Below, piece after piece: positions 1,923-25,689 of a DNA stretch of 64,000 nucleotides. The stretch lies in NCBI GenBank assembly GCA_963820835.1, contig CAWGBP010000014.1, positions 5,715-69,714 of the forward strand, in the 5' to 3' direction. Below the pieces are notes generated by a model. That model was given only the letters and a program-made list of their open reading frames with translations, was not told where the DNA came from and made no database searches. Origin of the DNA: Pirellulales bacterium (GTDB lineage Bacteria > Planctomycetota > Planctomycetia > Pirellulales > JADZDJ01). Made by a program: the position numbers and the translations under genes. Every line of letters begins with the position of its first letter. Position 1 is the first letter of the stretch.

Positions 1923-3971
1923 ATGCAATTCGAGCGCCTCGGACCCTACAAAATCGGCAAACGCCTCGGCCGTGGAGGCATGGGCGCAGTATTCGAAGGT
2001 ACCGACGCCGAAACCGGTCAAGCCGCCGCCGTCAAAGTGCTCAATGCGCACCTGGCCGACGATGCCGGCTTCCGAGAGCGCTTTGAAATGGAAATTGAGA
2101 CGCTCAAAAAGCTCCAGCATCCCAACATCGTGCGCATGCTCGGCTACGGCGAGCACGACGGCTACTTGTTTTATGTCATGGAGCTTATCAAAGGCCGCAG
2201 CGTCGAGGAAGAATTGCAAGCGGGCCGCCGCTTCACTTGGCGCGAAGTGGTTCACGATGCGGTGAAACTCAGCAAGGCCCTGCGCCACGCGCACGATCAC
2301 GGTGTGATTCATCGCGATATAAAACCCGCGAACATATTGCTCACCGAAGACGACGACGTGAAGCTTACCGATTTCGGCATTGCGCGGCTGTTTGGGAACA
2401 CACAGATTACGATGGAAGGTGGGCTTGTCGGCACGGCGGAATATATGTCGCCCGAGCAGGCCGCCGGTGATCGGGTTACGCCGCAGAGCGATTTATATAG
2501 CTTGGGGGGCGTGATGTTCGCCATGCTTGCCGGCCGCCCGCCGTTTCGCGGCGGGTCGCTGGGGGAAATGTTGCAAAAACAGAGCTTCGAGCCGCCGCCG
2601 CCGGTCACGCGCTACGCCCGCGATGTTCCTGCCGAAGTCGAGGAGGCGATTACGCGATTGCTTTCGAAAGACCCGCATTCGCGCGCCACAAACGCCTTGA
2701 TTCTTAGCCGGCAGCTTGCGGCCATGGAGCATGGCCTGTCGCTCATGGCAAACCGTCCCGGCGAAAACCAAGCAGGTGTAAAAGGGCCCGCCGATAAGAC
2801 GCAAGTCGGAACCGGCATTAAGCCCGCACCGTCGAATCGCACGGTGAGCGATAAGGTCGAACCGGCCGATCCCTTCGAAGCCACTCAAATTGTCGAATCA
2901 ATTCCCCCAGCGCCATTGCGCAGACGGTGATGCCGCTGGCTCTCTCCCGCCGGACGAGGGGCGTGGCGAAAGGGTGGTTCCTTCCTTGCTTTCTGCCGGT
3001 GGTAATGGGGCCGATCCTGTCCGAGATCGCACCGCGATCCCCGACGACGCGCCAAGCGCTGCCAGCGCTCGGAAGTACGTTCCGCCCATCTCTTCGCCCG
3101 CAGTCAGACCGGCGCCGCGCAATCGCCGGGCGACGAAGAAGGCTTGGAACCGTTGCCGCTCCCGGCCGCACCAGCCACTACGATCGAGAATCGTTTTGTA
3201 ACTCTCGAGGAAGAGCGCCGCCGCCGCGCAGAACAAGATCTCGCCTCCGACGAGCGCCCGGCCATATTGCAAATTGCTGTGCTCGCAATGCTCTTGTTTG
3301 CGACCATCGGCGTTCTGTGGTACTTCATGCAGCCCCCTTCGGCCGACAAGCTCTACGGCCGAATTGTCGCTGCGGCGCAAGATGAAGATCCCGTGGCTCT
3401 CATGGGCGAGCAGGACGACGTACGCAATTTTCTGGATCGCTTCCCAAACGACCCGCGGGCCGGCGATATCAGGCACTATCAAGATGAAATCGAGTTGGAA
3501 CGGTTGGAGCAGCGTTTTCACATCCGCGCTCGCTTCCCCGGTCGTGAAGATCAGCTCACCCCGGTCGAGCACGATTACCTCGAGGCCGTGAGCTATGAAA
3601 CGAGCGATCCCCAGCAGGCCGCCGACAAGCTCCGGGCGCTCGTGCAACTGTACGGCCCCGCGGCACAATCGTCCGACCATACCAAACTGTGTGTGGAATT
3701 GGCCCAGCGCAAATTGGAAAGCTTTCAAAGTGAATTGGCCAAAGATGTCGCGGATAGAAAAAAAGTCCTAGACGCCAGCCTGCGGCGAGCCGAGCAAGTG
3801 CGAATAAAAGATCCGGCCGAAGCCCGCTCTATCTGGCAAAGCATTGTAGAATTGTACGGCAATAAATCGTGGGCGGCCGACGGCGTGGCCAAAGCCAAAG
3901 CTGCGCTGTCTCAAAGCACCGCCCAGCAACCGGCAACTCCAGCAAGCGATCATACGACCGACGTGCGCTAG
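1923..3971 (+). CDS. Membrane-anchored Ser/Thr protein kinase (two compensating frameshifts at about 2915 and 3105)
   Basis: LGRGGMGAV, AAVKVL, HRDIKPAN, DFG and GTAEYMSPE motifs; TM helix and helical C-terminal domain in ORF 3144-3971 (same frame). Confidence 0.88.
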
Positions 3972-4006
3972 ATCACCTCTTCACCTCTTCACCTAGTCAT
4001 CCGTTC

Positions 4007-5005
4007 ATGCCCGATCCTGCCTTCCCCACGACTCGCCTTCGCCGTTTGCGCTATCATCCGCTGGTGCGCGAACTCGTGCGCGAAGTTCGGCTGGCGCCAT
4101 CGAATTTCATTTTGCCCATTTTCGTCCGCGCGGGCCGCAACGCGAAACAAGAAATCGCCTCCATGCCCGGGCACTTTCAACTTTCGGTGGATCGGCTGGC
4201 CGAGGAAGCTAAAACCATCGCCGACCTGGGGTTGAGTGGCGTACTGGTCTTCGGCATTCCCGAAAAGAAAGACGCGATTGGCACCGACTCCTACAGCGAC
4301 GCGGGCATTGTGCAGCAAGCCGCTGGCGCCCTCAAGCAAGCCGCCCCCAACTTGCTGGTCATCACCGACGTTTGCTTCTGCGAATACACTGATCATGGCC
4401 ATTGTGGCGTGCTCAATGAAAAAACGGGCTGCATGGATGTCGACAACGATGCCACGCTTGAACTACTCGCCAGGCAAGCCGTCAGCCACGCTAAAGCCGG
4501 CGCCGACGTTGTCGCTCCCAGCGGCATGATGGATGGCATGGTGGCCGCCATTCGCCGCGGTCTCGACGCCGCCTCTCTCGCGCACGTTCCGATCATGAGC
4601 TATGCAGCCAAGTTCTCAAGCGCCTTCTATGGGCCATTTCGCGAGGCGGCTGAAAGCGCGCCGGCTTTCGGCGATCGCCGCAGCTATCAAATGGATCCCG
4701 CCGCCGGGGCAGGCCAAGCGCTGCGCGAAGTCGAGCTCGATTTGCGCGAAGGGGCCGACATTGTCATGGTCAAGCCGGCCCTGGCATATCTCGATGTCAT
4801 CAGTCAGGTGCGTTCGTCGTTCCCCGGCGTCCCGCTGGCGGCATACAACGTCTCCGGCGAATTCAGCATGGCTAAAGCGGCCGCCGCCAAGGGTTGGATC
4901 GATGAAAAAGCTGTCGCCCTGGAAATGCTAACCGCCATTCGCCGCGCCGGCGCGAGCATCATCGTTACGTACTGGGCCAAAGAAGCGGCCGTGTGGGTTC
5001 GCTAG
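4007..5005 (+). CDS. hemB: Porphobilinogen synthase (delta-aminolevulinate dehydratase)
   Basis: DVCFCEYTDHGHCG, APSGMMDG, SAFYGPFREA, MVKPA and AYNVSGE motifs. Confidence 0.96.
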   Translation: MPDPAFPTTRLRRLRYHPLVRELVREVRLAPSNFILPIFVRAGRNAKQEIASMPGHFQLSVDRLAEEAKTIADLGLSGVLVFGIPEKKDAIGTDSYSDAGIVQQAAGALKQAAPNLLVITDVCFCEYTDHGHCGVLNEKTGCMDVDNDATLELLARQAVSHAKAGADVVAPSGMMDGMVAAIRRGLDAASLAHVPIMSYAAKFSSAFYGPFREAAESAPAFGDRRSYQMDPAAGAGQALREVELDLREGADIVMVKPALAYLDVISQVRSSFPGVPLAAYNVSGEFSMAKAAAAKGWIDEKAVALEMLTAIRRAGASIIVTYWAKEAAVWVR

Positions 5006-13727: not shown

Positions 13728-14792
13728 ATGAATATGGACTCCGCACCACTCAACTTTCTGAAACAACTCCTCGAGACGCCCAGTCCTTCTGGATATGAGA
13801 AGCCGATCCAGGATGTGGTTCGCCGCTATGTGGCCGAGTTTGCCGACCGAGTCACCACCGATTTGCACGGCAACGTGATCGCGGTGAAAAATCCCGACGC
13901 GAAGCTGCGCGTCATGCTCGCCGGGCACTGCGACCAGATCGGCATGCTCGTGCAACACATCGACGCCGAAGGCTATTTGTACGTGCAAACCATCGGCGGT
14001 TGGGATCCGCAGCAGTTGGTTGGCCAGCGGATGACGGTCTGGACCGCCGGCGGCCCCGTGCCGGGCGTGATTTCGCGCAAGGCGATTCACTTGCTGACCG
14101 AGGAAGAACGCAAGCAAGTCGTGAAGCTCAAAGATATGTGGCTCGACATTGGCGCCAAAGACAAGGCCGAGGCGGAAGGGCTGGTTTCGATCGGCGACCC
14201 GGTCACGCTGCAACTTGGTTTCCAACCGATGCGCAACAATTTCGCCAATTCGCCCGGCATGGACGACAAGACCGGCCTGTGGGTCTGCATCGAGGCGCTG
14301 CGGCGCGCGAGTGCAAAGAAACTGAACTGCGCGCTGTTTGCGGTTTCGACCGTGCAGGAAGAAATTGGCCTACGCGGCGCTCAAACCAGCGCTTTCGGAA
14401 TCGATCCGCACGTGGGCATTGCCGTCGACGTGACGCACGCCACCGATTGCCCGACGGTCGACAAAAAGCAGGAGGGGGATGTCGCGCTGGGCAAAGGCCC
14501 GGTGATTTATCGCGGGCCTAACATGAACCCGCGGGTAGTGGAAAAACTGATCGAGACGGCGAAGGCGGGCGAAATACCCTATCAACTGGCGGCCAGCGGC
14601 CGAGCCACGGGAACCGACGCCAACCCGATTCAGATCAATCGGGCAGGCGTCGCGGCGGGATTGGTGAGCATTCCCAGCCGCTACATGCATAGCGCCGTCG
14701 AGATGATTTCGCTGGATGACATCGACCGGGCCGCTGATCTGTTAGCCAACTTCGCCGCCAGTGTGGGCGCAGGCGACGATTTCACGCCGTGA
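13728..14792 (+). CDS. M42 family metallo-aminopeptidase
   Basis: PSPSGYE, AGHCDQIG, MDDKTG, TVQEEIGLRGA, GTDA, RYMHS. Confidence 0.93.
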   Translation: MNMDSAPLNFLKQLLETPSPSGYEKPIQDVVRRYVAEFADRVTTDLHGNVIAVKNPDAKLRVMLAGHCDQIGMLVQHIDAEGYLYVQTIGGWDPQQLVGQRMTVWTAGGPVPGVISRKAIHLLTEEERKQVVKLKDMWLDIGAKDKAEAEGLVSIGDPVTLQLGFQPMRNNFANSPGMDDKTGLWVCIEALRRASAKKLNCALFAVSTVQEEIGLRGAQTSAFGIDPHVGIAVDVTHATDCPTVDKKQEGDVALGKGPVIYRGPNMNPRVVEKLIETAKAGEIPYQLAASGRATGTDANPIQINRAGVAAGLVSIPSRYMHSAVEMISLDDIDRAADLLANFAASVGAGDDFTP

Positions 14793-19732: not shown

Positions 19733-21433
19733 GTGGCAAAACAAATGGTGTTCGACGACGAAGCACGCAATCCGCTGGCTGCGGGCGTCAGTAAGCTGGC
19801 TCAAGCAGTCCGCAGCACTCTTGGCCCCCGCGGCCGCAATGCCGTCCTCGATAAAGGCTGGGGCTCGCCGAAAATCACCAAAGACGGCGTTACCGTGGCG
19901 GAAGATATCGAACTCGACGACCCCTACGAAAATCTGGGCGCGAAGCTGGTGAAAGAGGCGGCCAGCAAAACCAACGACGTCGCCGGCGACGGCACGACCA
20001 CGGCCACCGTGCTGGCCGAGGCCATTTACAAGGAAGGCCTGAGAATGATTGCCGCCGGCGCCGACCCCATGGCACTGTCGCGCGGCATTTCGAAAGCCAC
20101 TGAAAAAGTCATCGAAGCCATCAAAAAGATGGCCACGCCAATCGACGAGAAAAATCGGAAGGAAATTCAGCAAATTGCCACAATCGCCGGCAATAACGAT
20201 CCTTCGATTGGCGCTGTGCTTTCCGAAGCCTTCATGAAGGTCGGCAAAGACGGCGTCATCACGGTTGAAGAAGGCAAACAGAGCGAAACGACGGTCGATG
20301 TGGTCGAAGGCATGCAATTCGACCGCGGCTATCTCTCGCCCCACTTTGTCACCAATCAAGATCAGCAAATTGTCGAACTCGAAAACGCCGCTGTGCTGAT
20401 TTACGAAGATAAAATCTCCAACGCCAAGAACCTCGTTCCGCTGTTGGAAGCGATCAGCAAAGCGAATAAGCCGCTGTTGATTATTGCCGAGGACGTTGAA
20501 GGCGAAGCACTGGCCACGCTGGTCGTGAACAAGCTCCGCGGTATTTTAAGTGTGTGTGCCGTAAAAGCTCCGGGCTATGGCGATCGGCGCAAGGCGATGC
20601 TGGGCGACTTGGCGGCACTCACCGGCGGCACCGCCATTTTCAAAGATCTTGGAATTCAACTCGACTCGGTGAAGATTTCCGACCTGGGCAAAGTGAAAAA
20701 AGTGATCGTCGATAGCGAGAATACGACAATCGTTGGGGGCGGAGGGGATAAAAAAGCCATCGAGGGCCGCGTCCAGCAAATTCGCAACGAAATCGAAACG
20801 ACCGACAGCGATTACGACCGCGAAAAACTGCAGGAACGGTTGGCGAAGCTGGCCGGTGGCGTGGCCCAAATCAATGTGGGCGCAGCGACCGAAACCGAAA
20901 TGAAGGAACGTAAATACCTGTTGGAAGATGCCCAATCGGCCACCAAGGCGGCGCTCGAAGAAGGCATTGTGCCCGGTGGCGGCGTGGCGCTGATTCGCGC
21001 GGAGAAATCGCTCGATAAGCTCGGCTTGGAAGGAGACGAGGCGCTGGGGGCCAAGATCGTTAAGAACGTGCTCGACTGGCCGCTGCGCTGGATTGCCGAA
21101 AATGCCGGGGTCGATGGCGCAGTAGTCGTCAACCGCGTTCGCCAAATGAAAGGCAAAAACGATGGCTACGATGCCGACAAAGACGAGTACTGCGACCTGA
21201 CGGATCGCGGCATTATCGATCCGGCCAAGGTAGTTCGAACTGCGCTGCAAAACGCCGCCAGTGTGGCCGCCCTGCTGTTGACCACATCGGCCTTGGTCAC
21301 CGACATTCCCAAGGAAGAAGATGAACACGCTGGCCACGACCACGGTCACGACCACGGCATGGGTGGTATGGGCGGCATGGGTGGAATGGGCGGTGGCATG
21401 GGAGGCATGGGTGGCATGGGCGGAATGATGTAG
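19733..21433 (+). CDS. groL: Chaperonin GroEL (copy 1, His-rich plus GGM tail)
   Basis: [31 protein letters not shown] repeats. Confidence 0.97.
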
Positions 21434-21549
21434 GACTGCAGACTGCAAACAAAATGCAGCATTAAGAACGCGAATTGCTTGGCGTCGCCGACCGCAAGGG
21501 CGAAAAGAGACCCAAAAAAACTAACCATTCATAATTGAGGAATTCAAAC

Positions 21550-21849
21550 ATGCCTAAAACCAAACTTCGTCCGCTCGATGATCGTGTTGTCGTGAAGCCC
21601 GTGGAAGCCGAGGAGCGCACCGCTGGCGGTATCGTCCTTCCCGATACGGCCAAGGAAAAGCCGCAGCGCGGCAAAGTCGTTTCCATCGGCCCCGGCAAAC
21701 TGCTCGAAAGCGGTCAGCGCGGGAATCTCTCGGTCTCAGTCGGCGACGAAGTCATTTACGGCAAGTATTCGGGCACCGATATCGAAATCGAAGGAGACGA
21801 CGTGAAGATCCTTCGCGAAACGGAAATTTTGGCGAAGGTGGTCGGCTAG
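21550..21849 (+). CDS. groS: Co-chaperonin GroES
   Basis: [33 protein letters not shown]. Confidence 0.97.
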
Positions 21850-21953: not shown

Positions 21954-23576
21954 GTGGCTGCAAAGCAATTACTGTTTGAGAATCAGGCCCGTGCGAAAAT
22001 GCTCAAGGGCGTGGAAAAGCTGGCCGACGCCGTGGCCGTAACCATGGGTCCCACCGGCCGCAACGTGATCATCGCCAAGTCGTTCGGCGGCCCGACGGTG
22101 ACCAAAGACGGCGTGACCGTGAGCAAGGAAGTTGATCTGGAAGATCGCTTCGAGAATATGGGCGCGAAGCTGGTGAACGAAGTGGCCAGCAAAACCTCCG
22201 ACGTAGCGGGCGACGGCACGACGACTGCCACAGTTCTAGCCCGCGCCATTTTCAAGGAAGGCTGCAAAGTCATTGCTGCCGGCAGCAATCCTATGGCGGT
22301 GCGGCGCGGCATCGAGAAAGGTACCGAAGCCGCGGTGGAACATTTGAAATCGATGGCCAAGCCAGTTTCGGGCAAGTCGGAAGTCGCTCAAGTCGGGTCG
22401 ATCAGTGCCAATAGCGACAAGGAAATCGGCGATCTGCTAGCCGACGCATTGGAGAAGGTCGGCAAAGATGGTGTGATCACGGTCGAAGAAGGCAAGACGA
22501 TGGAAACCACCGTGAAATTCGTCGACGGCATGCAATTCGACAAGGGCTACATCTCGCCGTATTTCATCAATCGTCCGGCTGAAATGGATTGCTTCCTCGA
22601 AGACGCGCTCATTCTCATTTACGAAAAAAAGCTCAGTAATTTGCGCGAACTGGTGCCGGTGTTGGAGAAAGTCGCCCAGTCTGGCAAGCCGCTGTTGATC
22701 ATCGCCGAAGATGTCGAGAGCGAAGCACTCACGGCGCTCGTGGTGAATCGCCTCCGCGGCGTGCTGAACGTGTGTGCCGTGAAGGCGCCCGGCTTTGGCG
22801 ATCGCCGCAAAGCCATGCTTGGCGATATTGCCATTGTGACCGGCGGCACGCTCATCAGCGAAGATTTGGGCTTAAAGCTTGAGAATCTGGAGCTGAACCA
22901 ACTCGGCCGTGCCAAGAAGATCACCGTCGATAAAAACGACACCACGATTGTCGAAGGGGCCGGTAAGCAGGCCGATATTCAAAATCGCATCCAGCAAATT
23001 CGCAATCAAATCGAAAACACCGACAGCGAATACGATCGCGAAAAATATCAGGAGCGCCTGGCTAAGCTAACCGGCGGCGTGGCGATCATTTCCGTTGGCG
23101 CCAGCACCGAAGCCGAAATGAAGCAGAAAAAGGCCCGCGTGGAAGACGCCCTGCACGCGACCCGTGCGGCGGTTGAAGAGGGCATTCTGCCCGGCGGTGG
23201 TGTGGCGCTGGTCCGTTGCCGTGAGGCGGTCGAAAAAGCTCGCGGCGGCGCGAAAGGTGAAGAGAAAACGGGCATCGACATCGTGCTGCACGCCCTGGAG
23301 GCGCCCATGCGTCAAATTGCCGACAATTGCGGCATCGATGGCTCGGTAGTGGCCGACGAAGTGCGGTCCAAGCCAACGAACACCGGCTACGATGCCAACA
23401 GCCGCGAATACGTCGATATGGTGAAGGCCGGCATTATCGATCCGCTCAAGGTCGTTCGCACGGCGATTTCCAACGCCGCGAGCATTGCCGGCTTAATGCT
23501 TACGACCGAGGCGCTGGTAACGAATTTGGAAGATGAAGACAAGAAACTGCGAGCGCCCGAAGGCGTCGTTCGGTAA
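21954..23576 (+). CDS. groL: Chaperonin GroEL (copy 2, no GGM tail)
   Basis: [38 protein letters not shown]. Confidence 0.97.
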
Positions 23577-23618: not shown

Positions 23619-23652
23619 CGGGCCGCTTCGATCAAGCGAGGCGGCCCGTTTT
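23619..23652 (+). terminator. Intrinsic terminator after groEL2
   Basis: Stem cgggccgcttcg / cgaggcggcccg followed by tttt. Confidence 0.7.
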
Positions 23653-23692
23653 CGATTGAGTCAAACTGCTATAATTGCTTGATAGCGACGAC

Positions 23693-24144
23693 ATGGCGGC
23701 TGAGCAATTCCTGTTTCGCGGAACGACCGATAATTGGCCAGGAAGTTTACGCGTTACAATCGGTCCGCCGGACATGCACGTCTACAGATCCTTTGGTTGC
23801 AACTTCTATTTGCCTTGGAGGCTGCTCGCAAAGGGAGGGCGGTTGTCGTCGTCGCGGACAGAGCCAAATTGAAACAGCTCGAACGAATTCCAAACCACTT
23901 TGCCGCGGTGGAGTGTGAAGTTGTTCTGGAAATATTGCCGGCGACGTTCTTGGATTTTACCTTACACGTGATTCCAGTTGCTTTGGCACGCGATAGCCTT
24001 ATTAGCATGGGGTTTGAATTGCCGCATATAATCTCGGATATTGCCCGCTTACGTGCCGAATTGAATGATACATTTAACAAAGAACAACGATTGAGCATGC
24101 GACAAACTCATGAGTTCCTCTCCCGTTGCGGAGTCTCGTTATGA
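23693..24144 (+). CDS. Putative ADP-ribosyltransferase-like toxin domain protein (two single-T frameshifts as sequenced)
   Basis: Removing one T at about 23746 and one at about 23804 gives FLFRGTT...TCTSTDPLVATLFA...VECEVVL (R-S-E-like); TGnTATAAT at 23667-23675. Confidence 0.55.
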
Positions 24145-24491
24145 ATGATCGCAACATTGAGTTTATTGTGGACGGCTTTGTCACTGGAGAATCGGGGCGA
24201 TTTTCCGTCGTCGGCCGTTGCGGCGATGAACCCATTCATGTCGGAGATACCTTCCGATGCCTATTTCGCTATAAGTCTGGGTCCTATCCGAAAGATGCTG
24301 AGATGCCTTCCTCTCGCGAGGAGAAACAGTGTCCGGTGGAATTGCGAATCGAAGGTATTCATGCCTATGAACAAGATCTCGCGGAACTTGGGCCAGGCAT
24401 GACCGGATCGATCGCTCTGCGCGGCCAGGGAGTGCAACTGGTTAGCCCGGGCTCAGTACTAGGCATGCCTTGTCCAAAATGCAATGCCTAA
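24141..24491 (+). CDS. Stand-alone EF-Tu domain II-like beta-barrel protein
   Basis: SVVGRC..IHVGD and IEGIHAY..LAELGPGMTGSIALRG...PGSVL align by eye with EF-Tu domain II; ATGA overlap with the upstream ORF. Confidence 0.6.
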   Translation: MNDRNIEFIVDGFVTGESGRFSVVGRCGDEPIHVGDTFRCLFRYKSGSYPKDAEMPSSREEKQCPVELRIEGIHAYEQDLAELGPGMTGSIALRGQGVQLVSPGSVLGMPCPKCNA

Positions 24492-24501
24492 TACTCGATC
24501 C

Positions 24502-25689
24502 ATGGCCACAATGGCAACCAAGCGCGATTACTACGAAGTGTTGGGCGTCGGGCGCAACGCTCAGCAAAAAGAGATTGCCGACGCCTATCGCAAGCTCGCG
24601 CTCAAATATCATCCCGACCGCAATCCGCACAATCCCGATGCGGCCGATCATTTTAAAGAGGCGGCTCAGGCGTTCGAGGTGCTTACCGATGACGAAAAAC
24701 GCGCCCGCTACGATCGCTATGGGCACGCCGGAGTGGAAGGCGGCGTCCACCAGTTCACGGACGTGAACGATATCTTCGAGGCGTTTGGGCAAATCTTCGG
24801 CGGCGGAGCTTTTGGCGATTTGTTCGGCGGCGGGCGCTCGTCGCGCCGCCCGCGCAAGGGGGACGATGTCGCCTGCGAACTCGAAATCGACCTGTTCGAA
24901 GCGGCTCGCGGCACGAGCAAGACGATCGAATTCGAGCGCCATGAAGCATGCCCCGAGTGCAAGGGGAGCGGGGCCAAGCTCGGCAGCAAGCCGGAAACGT
25001 GCCGCTATTGCGGCGGCCGTGGCCAAATCATGCAGTCCAGCGGCATTTTCCGCGTGCAAACAACCTGTCCCGCCTGCCACGGCGCGGGCCAATTGGTTAA
25101 AGATCCGTGCGCAAAATGTAATGGCGCAGGCTATCAACTCAAGCGCCTGTTTCGCGAGGTGAAGGTACCTGCGGGAATCGACCACGGCATGCGTATTCGC
25201 TTGACCGGGGAAGGAGAGCCCAGCCCCAATGGCGGGCCGCCGGGCGATTGCTTCTGCGTCATTAGCCTGAAGAAGCATCCGCTGTTTGAGCGCGAAGGGC
25301 ACGATCTTATTTGCCAGGTTCCGCTCAGCTATGCCCAGGCGGCGCTGGGGGCCACCATCGAAGTACCGACGCTCGAAGGCCCGGAAGAATTGGAAATTCC
25401 CGCCGGAACCCAGCCGGGCGAAGTGTTTAAGCTTCGCCGCCGCGGCATGCCCGATCCGCGCGGCAAGGCGAAGGGAGATTTGCTCGTGCTGGTGAGTTTA
25501 GAGGTGCCCAAGTCGCTCACGGCTCAGCAAGAAAAGCTGCTGCGCGATTTGGCCACCGAAGAACGCACTAATGTGAGCGCCCACCGCAAATCGTTCCTGG
25601 AGAAATTGAAATCGTATTTCGTTCCGGCCGACGAGCCGGCGCAGGAAATGGAGGAACAACATGGCCAACGTAAACAAAAATCGAAATGA
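24502..25689 (+). CDS. dnaJ: Chaperone DnaJ
   Basis: RDYYEVLGV, HPD, G/F region, four CxxCxGxG repeats. Confidence 0.97.
   Translation: MATMATKRDYYEVLGVGRNAQQKEIADAYRKLALKYHPDRNPHNPDAADHFKEAAQAFEVLTDDEKRARYDRYGHAGVEGGVHQFTDVNDIFEAFGQIFGGGAFGDLFGGGRSSRRPRKGDDVACELEIDLFEAARGTSKTIEFERHEACPECKGSGAKLGSKPETCRYCGGRGQIMQSSGIFRVQTTCPACHGAGQLVKDPCAKCNGAGYQLKRLFREVKVPAGIDHGMRIRLTGEGEPSPNGGPPGDCFCVISLKKHPLFEREGHDLICQVPLSYAQAALGATIEVPTLEGPEELEIPAGTQPGEVFKLRRRGMPDPRGKAKGDLLVLVSLEVPKSLTAQQEKLLRDLATEERTNVSAHRKSFLEKLKSYFVPADEPAQEMEEQHGQRKQKSK

Follow-up and report, generated by a model that had tools for sequence, protein, structure and literature searches.

What kind of system is formed by the two small genes, here called ORF1 and ORF2 (ORF, open reading frame), that lie between groEL2 and dnaJ in a 64,000-nt stretch of DNA from a Pirellulales bacterium (assembly GCA_963820835.1, contig CAWGBP010000014.1, positions 5,715 to 69,714)? 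This whole stretch is referred to below as the window, and the genome that holds it as G000. A first-pass annotation of the DNA letters had proposed that ORF1 is an ADP-ribosyltransferase (ART)-like toxin hidden by two frameshifts, and that ORF2 is an antitoxin that imitates domain II of the translation factor EF-Tu. Our results make it likely that the locus is a two-gene toxin-immunity cassette, resembling a type II toxin-antitoxin (TA) module, that has become inserted between groEL2 and dnaJ. ORF1 would be an ART-fold domain of ~150 aa and of the R-S-E type, which also appears as the C-terminal warhead of Rhs, type VII secretion system (T7SS), CdiA-like and PT-HINT polymorphic toxins. We infer that it would use nicotinamide adenine dinucleotide (NAD+) to modify some essential target in the cytoplasm by ADP-ribosylation, or would destroy NAD+, and that ORF2, a stand-alone barrel translationally coupled to ORF1 through an ATGA overlap, would be the cognate neutralising protein that binds and blocks the toxin.

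An inserted gene pair between groEL2 and dnaJ

The features of the insertion and its flanks are as follows.

21954..23576, + strand: groEL2, a 540-aa ORF, the upstream flank of the insertion
23619..23648, + strand: terminator-like hairpin 3' of groEL2, 12 pairs, then TTTTC
23654..24500, + strand: approximate extent of the inserted cassette, which takes the place of most of the dnaJ leader of relatives
23667..23675, + strand: TGCTATAAT, a word like an extended -10 element, 18 nt upstream of the ATG of ORF1
23693..23746, + strand: ORF1 piece 1, 18 codons, with the aromatic-R-G-T-T motif
23748..23804, + strand: ORF1 piece 2, shifted by +1, 19 codons, with T-S-T-D-P-L-V-A-T
23806..24144, + strand: ORF1 piece 3, shifted by a further +1, 112 codons and the stop, with E-x-E and a helical C-terminal half
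24141..24491, + strand: ORF2, the conserved 116-aa partner with a predicted domain II-like beta-barrel, probably an immunity protein or antitoxin
24503..25689, + strand: dnaJ, the downstream flank, starting 11 nt past the ORF2 stop and followed by grpE

Measured between the same matched points, the distance from groEL2 to dnaJ was 933 nt in the window versus 192-231 nt in relatives, and no cassette was present at this position in five of them (three genomes of the same genus and two of the same family), whose groEL2 genes share 79-85% DNA identity with that of the window. When the spacers were aligned, the likeness to relatives stopped past the T-run of the terminator and restarted 2 nt before the dnaJ ATG. 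The ORF1-ORF2 pair is an insertion into the groEL2-dnaJ spacer, as had been proposed for this row of chaperone genes.

The terminator after groEL2 and the two lower-GC ORFs that had been described were found in place. The hairpin is also kept in the groEL2-dnaJ spacer of relatives, the ORF2 start overlaps the ORF1 stop as ATGA, and the G+C content was 49.3% for ORF1 and 52.7% for ORF2, against 56.6% for the window, 57.4% for groEL2 and 60.0% for dnaJ. The proposed extended -10 promoter held in part: the word TGCTATAAT is present, but a sigma-70 scan found no -35/-10 pair, so that it stands as an extended -10-like word only. A similar word, TACAAT, occurs in the dnaJ leader of relatives. Since the cassette lies so near its neighbours, it is probably co-transcribed with dnaJ-grpE.

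ORF1 is a conserved gene read through three frames

ORF1 (23693-24144) begins with an ATG at 23693 and ends with a stop codon at 24142-24144, and its 149 codons are distributed over three frames separated by +1 shifts at TTT 23746-23748 and TT 23804-23805. The first-pass annotation had pieced together a protein of about this size by removing one T at each site, and this reconstruction was confirmed by a tblastn search with an intact 152-aa homologue (L008:2276-2731). All three ORF1 frames were matched, in order, by residues 6-17 (23705-23740), 22-38 (23754-23804) and 39-146 (23806-24126) of the homologue, and no residues were lost or gained at the frame junctions. Furthermore, in another genome of the same order (G039), the two genes are adjacent and the first 55 residues of ORF1, which occupy three frames in the window, are encoded in one. 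Because the intact homologue matches all frames in order, we regard the three-frame reading as real and not a matter of chance; by sequence, ORF1 belongs to a genuine family, from whose other members it is set apart by two extra single bases. Apart from these single-base shifts, it has no stop in the frames used and its motif residues are all intact. Programmed frameshifting was rejected because the homologues are in a single frame at both shift sites.

The ORF1 domain terminates polymorphic toxins

A word-based search with the third piece of ORF1 found no relatives. An exhaustive HMMER search with the intact homologue, at a cut-off of E<=0.001, returned a family of 318 cluster representatives (50% identity). 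Among the best 150 of these 318 representatives, 79 were <=200 aa and 71 were >200 aa in length, and in all but one of the long ones (70/71) the domain lay <=15 aa from the C-terminus. Nine long proteins were scanned for other domains: seven carried RHS_repeat, DUF6531, WXG100, DUF637/Fil_haemagg, PT-HINT with a ricin lectin, or LPD22, and two gave no domain match. Rhs core domains were found in P0064 and P0153 (NCBIfam), one carrier, from a Synechococcus, is annotated as an Rhs protein, and another is a Streptomyces plasmid gene annotated as a 'putative T7SS-secreted protein'. Judged by its companion domains, the architecture is that of polymorphic toxins.

The R-S-E motifs pointed out in the window copy proved to be family-wide in 127 aligned ORF1 domains, over which all motif counts were taken. 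The Arg of the aromatic-R-G-T motif and the Ser/Thr before D-P ([ST][ST]DP) were each kept in 125/127 domains, and in E-x-E the first Glu was kept in 126/127 and the second in 109/127. The window copy holds all these residues, spread over its three pieces. Their placement on strands was taken from the secondary structure of the model described below. In several stand-alone copies from planctomycetes, among them those at L010 and L013, Ala stands in place of the second Glu (position 76 of L008 ORF1). Whereas the usual pattern is [QE]-x-E, the ORF1 family, with its near-invariant first Glu, shows the reverse.

An AlphaFold2 model of L008 ORF1 (43-row alignment) had a predicted local distance difference test (pLDDT) score of 94.4. 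In Foldseek searches, its best matches were KptA/Tpt1 (E 2e-3), TreTu/TreX (TreTu in row 15) and cholera/LT toxins. A VIA search matched it to KptA (Z 6.2, root-mean-square deviation 3.1 over 79 residues), Arr (Z 5.3) and TreX (Z 4.9, deviation 3.5 over 85 residues), and ~40 of the 50 matches listed were ART, PARP, DarT, ParT or MbcT proteins by title. Other structural neighbours were heat-labile, cholera, pertussis and diphtheria-type toxins, and in the language-model Atlas, Arr clusters made up 22/30 feature matches. In line with the ART fold that had been expected for ORF1, the neighbours of its model are thus nearly all NAD+-dependent transferases of the ART superfamily, with weak scores. 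Because toxin architecture, motifs and structural neighbours agree, we have filed ORF1 as a probable, unnamed family of R-S-E-type ART-fold toxin domains. This family is sizeable, and its members appear to serve both as secreted warheads and in stand-alone cassettes.

ORF2 is predicted to be a stand-alone domain II-like barrel

The ORF2 family consists of 12 proteins found by a word-based search, together with the loci recovered in genome and metagenome scans (see below), and has G-M-T-G as its invariant core. ORF2 and its relatives are stand-alone proteins of 116-137 aa with no GTPase domain attached. ORF2 was modelled as a beta-barrel (pLDDT 83.2, two of five models good) with a 20-residue insert in the R-Y-K...P-D-E region (pLDDT 58-72). 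Foldseek matched this model to domain II of EF-Tu, SelB and EF1A over 106-112 columns, with E of 1.4e-4 to 1.5e-3 and TMq of 0.58-0.65. In the VIA search, it matched EF-Pyl (Z 11.6), eRF3 (11.4), CysN (11.1), SelB (11.0) and EF-Tu (10.8), as well as IF2, and nearly all of the 38 chains at Z>=8 were domain II. Two archaeal stand-alone barrels scored as high, PF0907 at Z 11.3 and Pbp11 at Z 10.9.

These matches support a predicted fold of the translation-GTPase domain II class as a whole. EF-Tu is not singled out, because the barrel is common to the entire GTPase class and to the archaeal proteins. Sequence similarity of ORF2 to EF-Tu is marginal. The Pfam model GTP_EFTU_D2 (PF03144) gave 15.8 bits and E 0.02 with ORF2, under the gathering cut-off of 30.3. 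At E<=1, it matched 2/28 ORF2 family members (best E 9.9e-6), and the other 26 were without a Pfam match. Small GTP_EFTU_D2 clusters made up 4/30 Atlas feature matches for ORF2. G000, which is 75.5% complete, had no tuf or rpoB match and hence offered no EF-Tu of its own for comparison, and hhalign of the ORF2 profile with EF-Tu of the same-genus genome G001 gave a probability of 0.4%. Thus, the barrel fold and the lack of a GTPase domain that had been read from the sequence stood, but the assignment to EF-Tu in particular did not. The fold provides a concrete lead to the target of the toxin.

In a tree of the ORF2 family, 15/27 inner branches were left open; the window copy pairs with P0002. 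Co-prediction of L008 ORF1 with L008 ORF2, with alignments as input and without controls, scored 0.00, 0.73 and 0.00 in three runs, and weighs neither way.

ORF2 accompanies stand-alone ORF1

Scans of species-representative genomes recovered 8 further loci, and scans of metagenome contigs with a 10-row alignment recovered 22. An ORF2 relative lay directly downstream of the ORF1 relative at 18/22 metagenome loci; in the remaining four, two are cut by contig ends (L034 and L039) and two are fused toxins (L031 and L038). Among the genome loci, ORF2 is present at L003, L007-L010 and L012-L014, which leaves no stand-alone ORF1 locus without it, and L008 and L010 have the same ATGA overlap as the window. 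Taking genome and metagenome loci together, no stand-alone ORF1 with enough downstream sequence was found without ORF2, in agreement with the co-occurrence that had been predicted for the two genes.

The same prediction had placed ORF2 homologues next to ORF1-type domains at the ends of polymorphic toxins. The C-terminal position was found, as described above, but the fused toxins L031 and L038 showed no such neighbour. The domain ends a 393-aa protein in one and a 934-aa protein in the other; each is followed by a different small ORF, in which hhalign detected no similarity to the ORF2 profile. The gene family downstream of a Streptomyces fused toxin gave a weak hint only (hhalign E 0.003, probability 10%). 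By eye, the small genes downstream of fused toxins at L062:2904-3191, L031:1965-2324 and L038:3453-3779 share with ORF2 a strand-x-Y...G-x-h-x-L pattern; their comparison with the ORF2 profile was non-significant (best hhalign E 0.003, probability 10%), and they are at most candidates for very distant barrels of the ORF2 kind.

ORF2 does occur without an intact ORF1. At L011, a gyrA-gyrB locus (3485-4372), ORF2 is intact and ORF1 is replaced by a 115-aa ORF of a different kind. Since ORF2 was found without an intact ORF1 but no stand-alone ORF1 with downstream sequence was found without ORF2, the pair shows the asymmetry that is predicted for a toxin and its antidote. By eye, just a C-terminal remnant of ORF1 remains at L011, which looks like an orphan immunity gene. 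A further 107-aa ORF (L004:1396-1719, genome G015) resembles ORF2 in its C-terminal half (E 1.5e-8, residues 49-115); with nothing related to ORF1 lying upstream, it may represent a relic or some other arrangement.

Selection was estimated from one unsaturated pair of loci, L018 and L019, where the ratio of nonsynonymous to synonymous substitution rates (dN/dS) was 0.157 for ORF1 and 0.125 for ORF2. Both genes are therefore maintained in these relatives. The cassette lies between gyrA and gyrB at 13 loci and between sufB and sufD at 8, to which L027 was added by eye; the rest have other neighbours. Gaps to the flanking genes are ~11-40 nt. The pair is rare: counting G000, ORF2 was found in 3/61 genomes of the order and ORF1 in 3/401 of the phylum. 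A tblastn search of plasmids with ORF2 gave no match. Such repeated siting inside essential operons is unusual for TA modules and raises the question of how these cassettes spread and persist.

Origin of the two frameshifts

The shifts that divide ORF1 were weighed against the quality of the assembly. In G000, frame changes also split sufB (one), sufD (two) and a third groEL (one), on contigs C67:60082-62503 and C48:109996-111550. In the window, ~15 frame changes lie inside ORFs that are uninterrupted in the same-genus genomes G001 or G003, for example near 300-1020, 9190, 11360, 13090, 14050, 14383, 28000, 40600, 47790, 49840, 55737, 58050 and 62560. Some of them are clustered, with three in the gene at 1-1837 and two in the gene at 13734-14502. 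Loci of relatives in long-read-type metagenome-assembled genomes likewise have split genes, gyrA and gyrB included. Where the assembly comes from short reads, ORF1 stays within a single frame (L008, L010 and 20/22 metagenome loci). Because the assembly breaks frames elsewhere, the frameshifts are not to be taken as biology, and we consider assembly indel errors the somewhat more probable source of both. The only public read data found on the locus, from one run, gave a 151-nt contig at 24023-24173 that is identical to the window; neither shift (23746, 23804) is covered by this contig or any other.

The alternative, real inactivating mutations, has a chance that falls a little short of even. 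On that account, ORF1 would be a true pseudogene in this genome and ORF2 its surviving orphan immunity gene, an explanation that we hold to be quite possible. It draws on the unbroken state of the adjoining groEL1, groES, groEL2, dnaJ and grpE (~5.4 kb), and on L011, where the toxin has been lost and ORF2 retained. The spacing of the shifts is taken up below. It is opposed by the splitting of sufB and sufD, which are essential genes, in the same assembly, by the clustering of some window frame changes, and by the open frames and intact motif residues of an ORF1 that is single-frame in the short-read assemblies.

Weighing the toxin-immunity reading

Several results count against a toxin-immunity cassette. 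No Pfam, NCBIfam or PADLOC model matched ORF1 or ORF2 to a named family, and PDB sequence searches with both profiles returned nothing below E 0.6. The ART-fold scores are weak: Foldseek E was no better than 2e-3, and the top VIA Z of 6.2 is below the caution line of 8. Many type II antitoxins, though not every one, contain a DNA-binding domain. ORF2 has no helix-turn-helix, ribbon-helix-helix or AbrB family in Pfam or NCBIfam, and the whole protein is modelled as one barrel. The locus counts overstate independence, since L020/L021 and L032/L033/L037 are near-duplicates. The pair has its place within essential operons and is passed on along clades, as seen in the tendency of sufB-sufD copies to group in the ORF2 tree; mobile TA modules seldom behave in this way, which makes a domesticated role conceivable. 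In the window itself, the two shifts are only 58 nt apart, where ~0.1 would be expected in ORF1 from the mean of ~0.2 per kb, and real decay of ORF1 has to be reckoned with because this exceeds the mean rate. Finally, according to the available part of PMC13285283, ART-fold toxins may be NADases and not transferases.

Three other explanations were weighed with these points in mind. Along the lines of the first-pass annotation, EF-Tu or a related translation GTPase would be bound or modified by the toxin by way of its domain II, and ORF2 would protect as a stand-alone decoy of that domain which occupies the docking surface of the toxin. This target mimicry is a special case of the toxin-immunity reading and not an alternative to it. 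The idea gains from the match of the ORF2 model to domain II of EF-Tu, SelB and EF1A (Foldseek E ~1e-4, TMq 0.6-0.65), from the VIA scores for EF-Tu and EF-Pyl among the 38 chains, and from the weak GTP_EFTU_D2 and Atlas matches. By their PDB titles, a CdiA-CT/CdiI/EF-Tu (domains 2 and 3) ternary complex (5i4q) and a Tse6-EF-Tu complex (4zv4) offer precedents, and an Rhs ART toxin that ADP-ribosylates EF-Tu has been published (PMC9825190, as far as the accessible text goes). However, the fold is common to the whole GTPase class and to PF0907 and Pbp11, hhalign with same-genus EF-Tu gave no convincing match, 26/28 ORF2 family members had no Pfam match, and the genes downstream of two fused toxins are unlike ORF2, with the Streptomyces gene offering its weak hint. 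Moreover, the published toxin modifies the P-loop in domain I (same part of PMC9825190). We find mimicry of this kind rather unlikely; the decoy is a plausible hypothesis whose sole precedents are analogous toxins that dock on EF-Tu. Its fuller form, in which ORF2 would be a free-standing copy of domain II that acts as target-mimicking immunity in a pair fixed within essential operons (gyrA-gyrB, sufB-sufD and groEL-dnaJ), is quite unlikely; if it were true, such a pair would be co-transcribed and inherited like a housekeeping gene.

ORF1 might instead be an NAD(P)+ glycohydrolase that kills by NAD+ depletion, with ORF2 occluding its cleft and the likeness to domain II incidental. The structural matches of ORF1 include MbcT (Z 3.6), a TA toxin of the ART fold that degrades NAD+. 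In addition, Tne5 is an ART-fold Rhs toxin with NADase activity and without protein ADP-ribosylation, but it depends on a Lys and can do without its Glu (available part of PMC13285283), whereas the R / S-T / E-x-E pattern retained in the ORF1 family is that of cholera/C3-type transferases. The best structural matches are also transferases (KptA/Tpt1, Arr and TreX), and we judge glycohydrolase action unlikely. Finally, the pair might be a domesticated regulatory ART with ORF2 as its adaptor or substrate, kept in housekeeping operons and playing no part in conflict. The tight placement in gyrA-gyrB, sufB-sufD and groEL2-dnaJ, the purifying selection on both genes and the clustering of same-context copies in the tree are all consistent with such a role. 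Against it, Rhs, T7SS and CdiA-type toxins carry this very domain as their C-terminal warhead, the distribution is patchy in order and phylum, the five close relatives lack the pair at the groEL2-dnaJ site, and toxin-immunity pairs typically show such a gene order and overlap; domestication is thus very unlikely. Altogether, we retain the toxin-immunity cassette as the likely reading, in which an unnamed ART-type toxin, in its stand-alone form, would be paired with a putative immunity family of the translation-GTPase domain II fold.

Comparison with known systems

The Rhs ART toxins Tre23, TreTu/TriTu, TreX/TriX and TreThr are, like ORF1, small ART-fold C-terminal domains with an immunity gene downstream, and one such toxin is the modifier of EF-Tu mentioned above. 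In contrast, ORF1 has no sequence similarity to any solved chain and stands alone in a two-gene cassette, and ORF2 is predicted to be a domain II-like barrel; TriTu and TriX stand outside this last comparison. In the Tox-ART-RSE class, R-S-E ART domains end Rhs, HINT and T7SS toxins, planctomycetes included, and the immunity families listed are Imm41 and an ADP-ribosyl glycohydrolase, according to the accessible text of Zhang et al. 2012 (PMC3482391); ORF2 is a predicted barrel instead. The terms 'EF-Tu' and 'elongation factor' have 0 occurrences in the main text of that paper, as far as it was available. ORF1 is matched by no Pfam ART model.

ParT/ParS, DarT/DarG and MbcT/MbcA also consist of a stand-alone ART-fold toxin beside a neutraliser, and their toxins are weak structural matches of ORF1 (Z 3.2-3.6) without sequence similarity to it. 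Among their antitoxins, ParS belongs to the Xre type, DarG is a macrodomain and MbcA is helical. To our knowledge, none of the three is a beta-barrel, unlike the ORF2 model. Domain II (GTP_EFTU_D2), PF0907 and Pbp11 share the predicted barrel over nearly the whole of ORF2, which differs from domain II proteins in the lack of a GTPase domain, the sub-cut-off Pfam score, the 20-residue insert and the pairing with an ART-fold gene.

Interbacterial toxins that use EF-Tu as a partner include CdiA-CT of E. coli NC101 and EC869, Tse6, and Rhs2-CT of Serratia (10.1101/2025.10.28.685041 and PMC9071432, in their available parts). These toxins have other folds and act as nucleases or NADases, and the descriptions of their immunity proteins do not liken them to EF-Tu. 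Neither the available text of the 2012 catalogue of polymorphic toxins nor full-text literature searches, supplements aside, turned up an immunity protein described as having a domain II fold.

Neighbouring genes

Upstream of the insertion, the window's row of chaperone genes includes the following.

19733-21433: groEL1, the first of the row
21535-21849: groES, between groEL1 and groEL2

The two full groEL genes of the window thus flank groES, and the third groEL, mentioned above, lies on another contig. The C-terminal end of groEL1 consists of a His/Asp-rich stretch followed by Gly-Gly-Met repeats. In an assembly as rich in indels as this one, many G000 genes will have been missed or split by gene callers, and small toxin genes such as ORF1 vanish from the ORF tracks of indel-rich, long-read-type assemblies.

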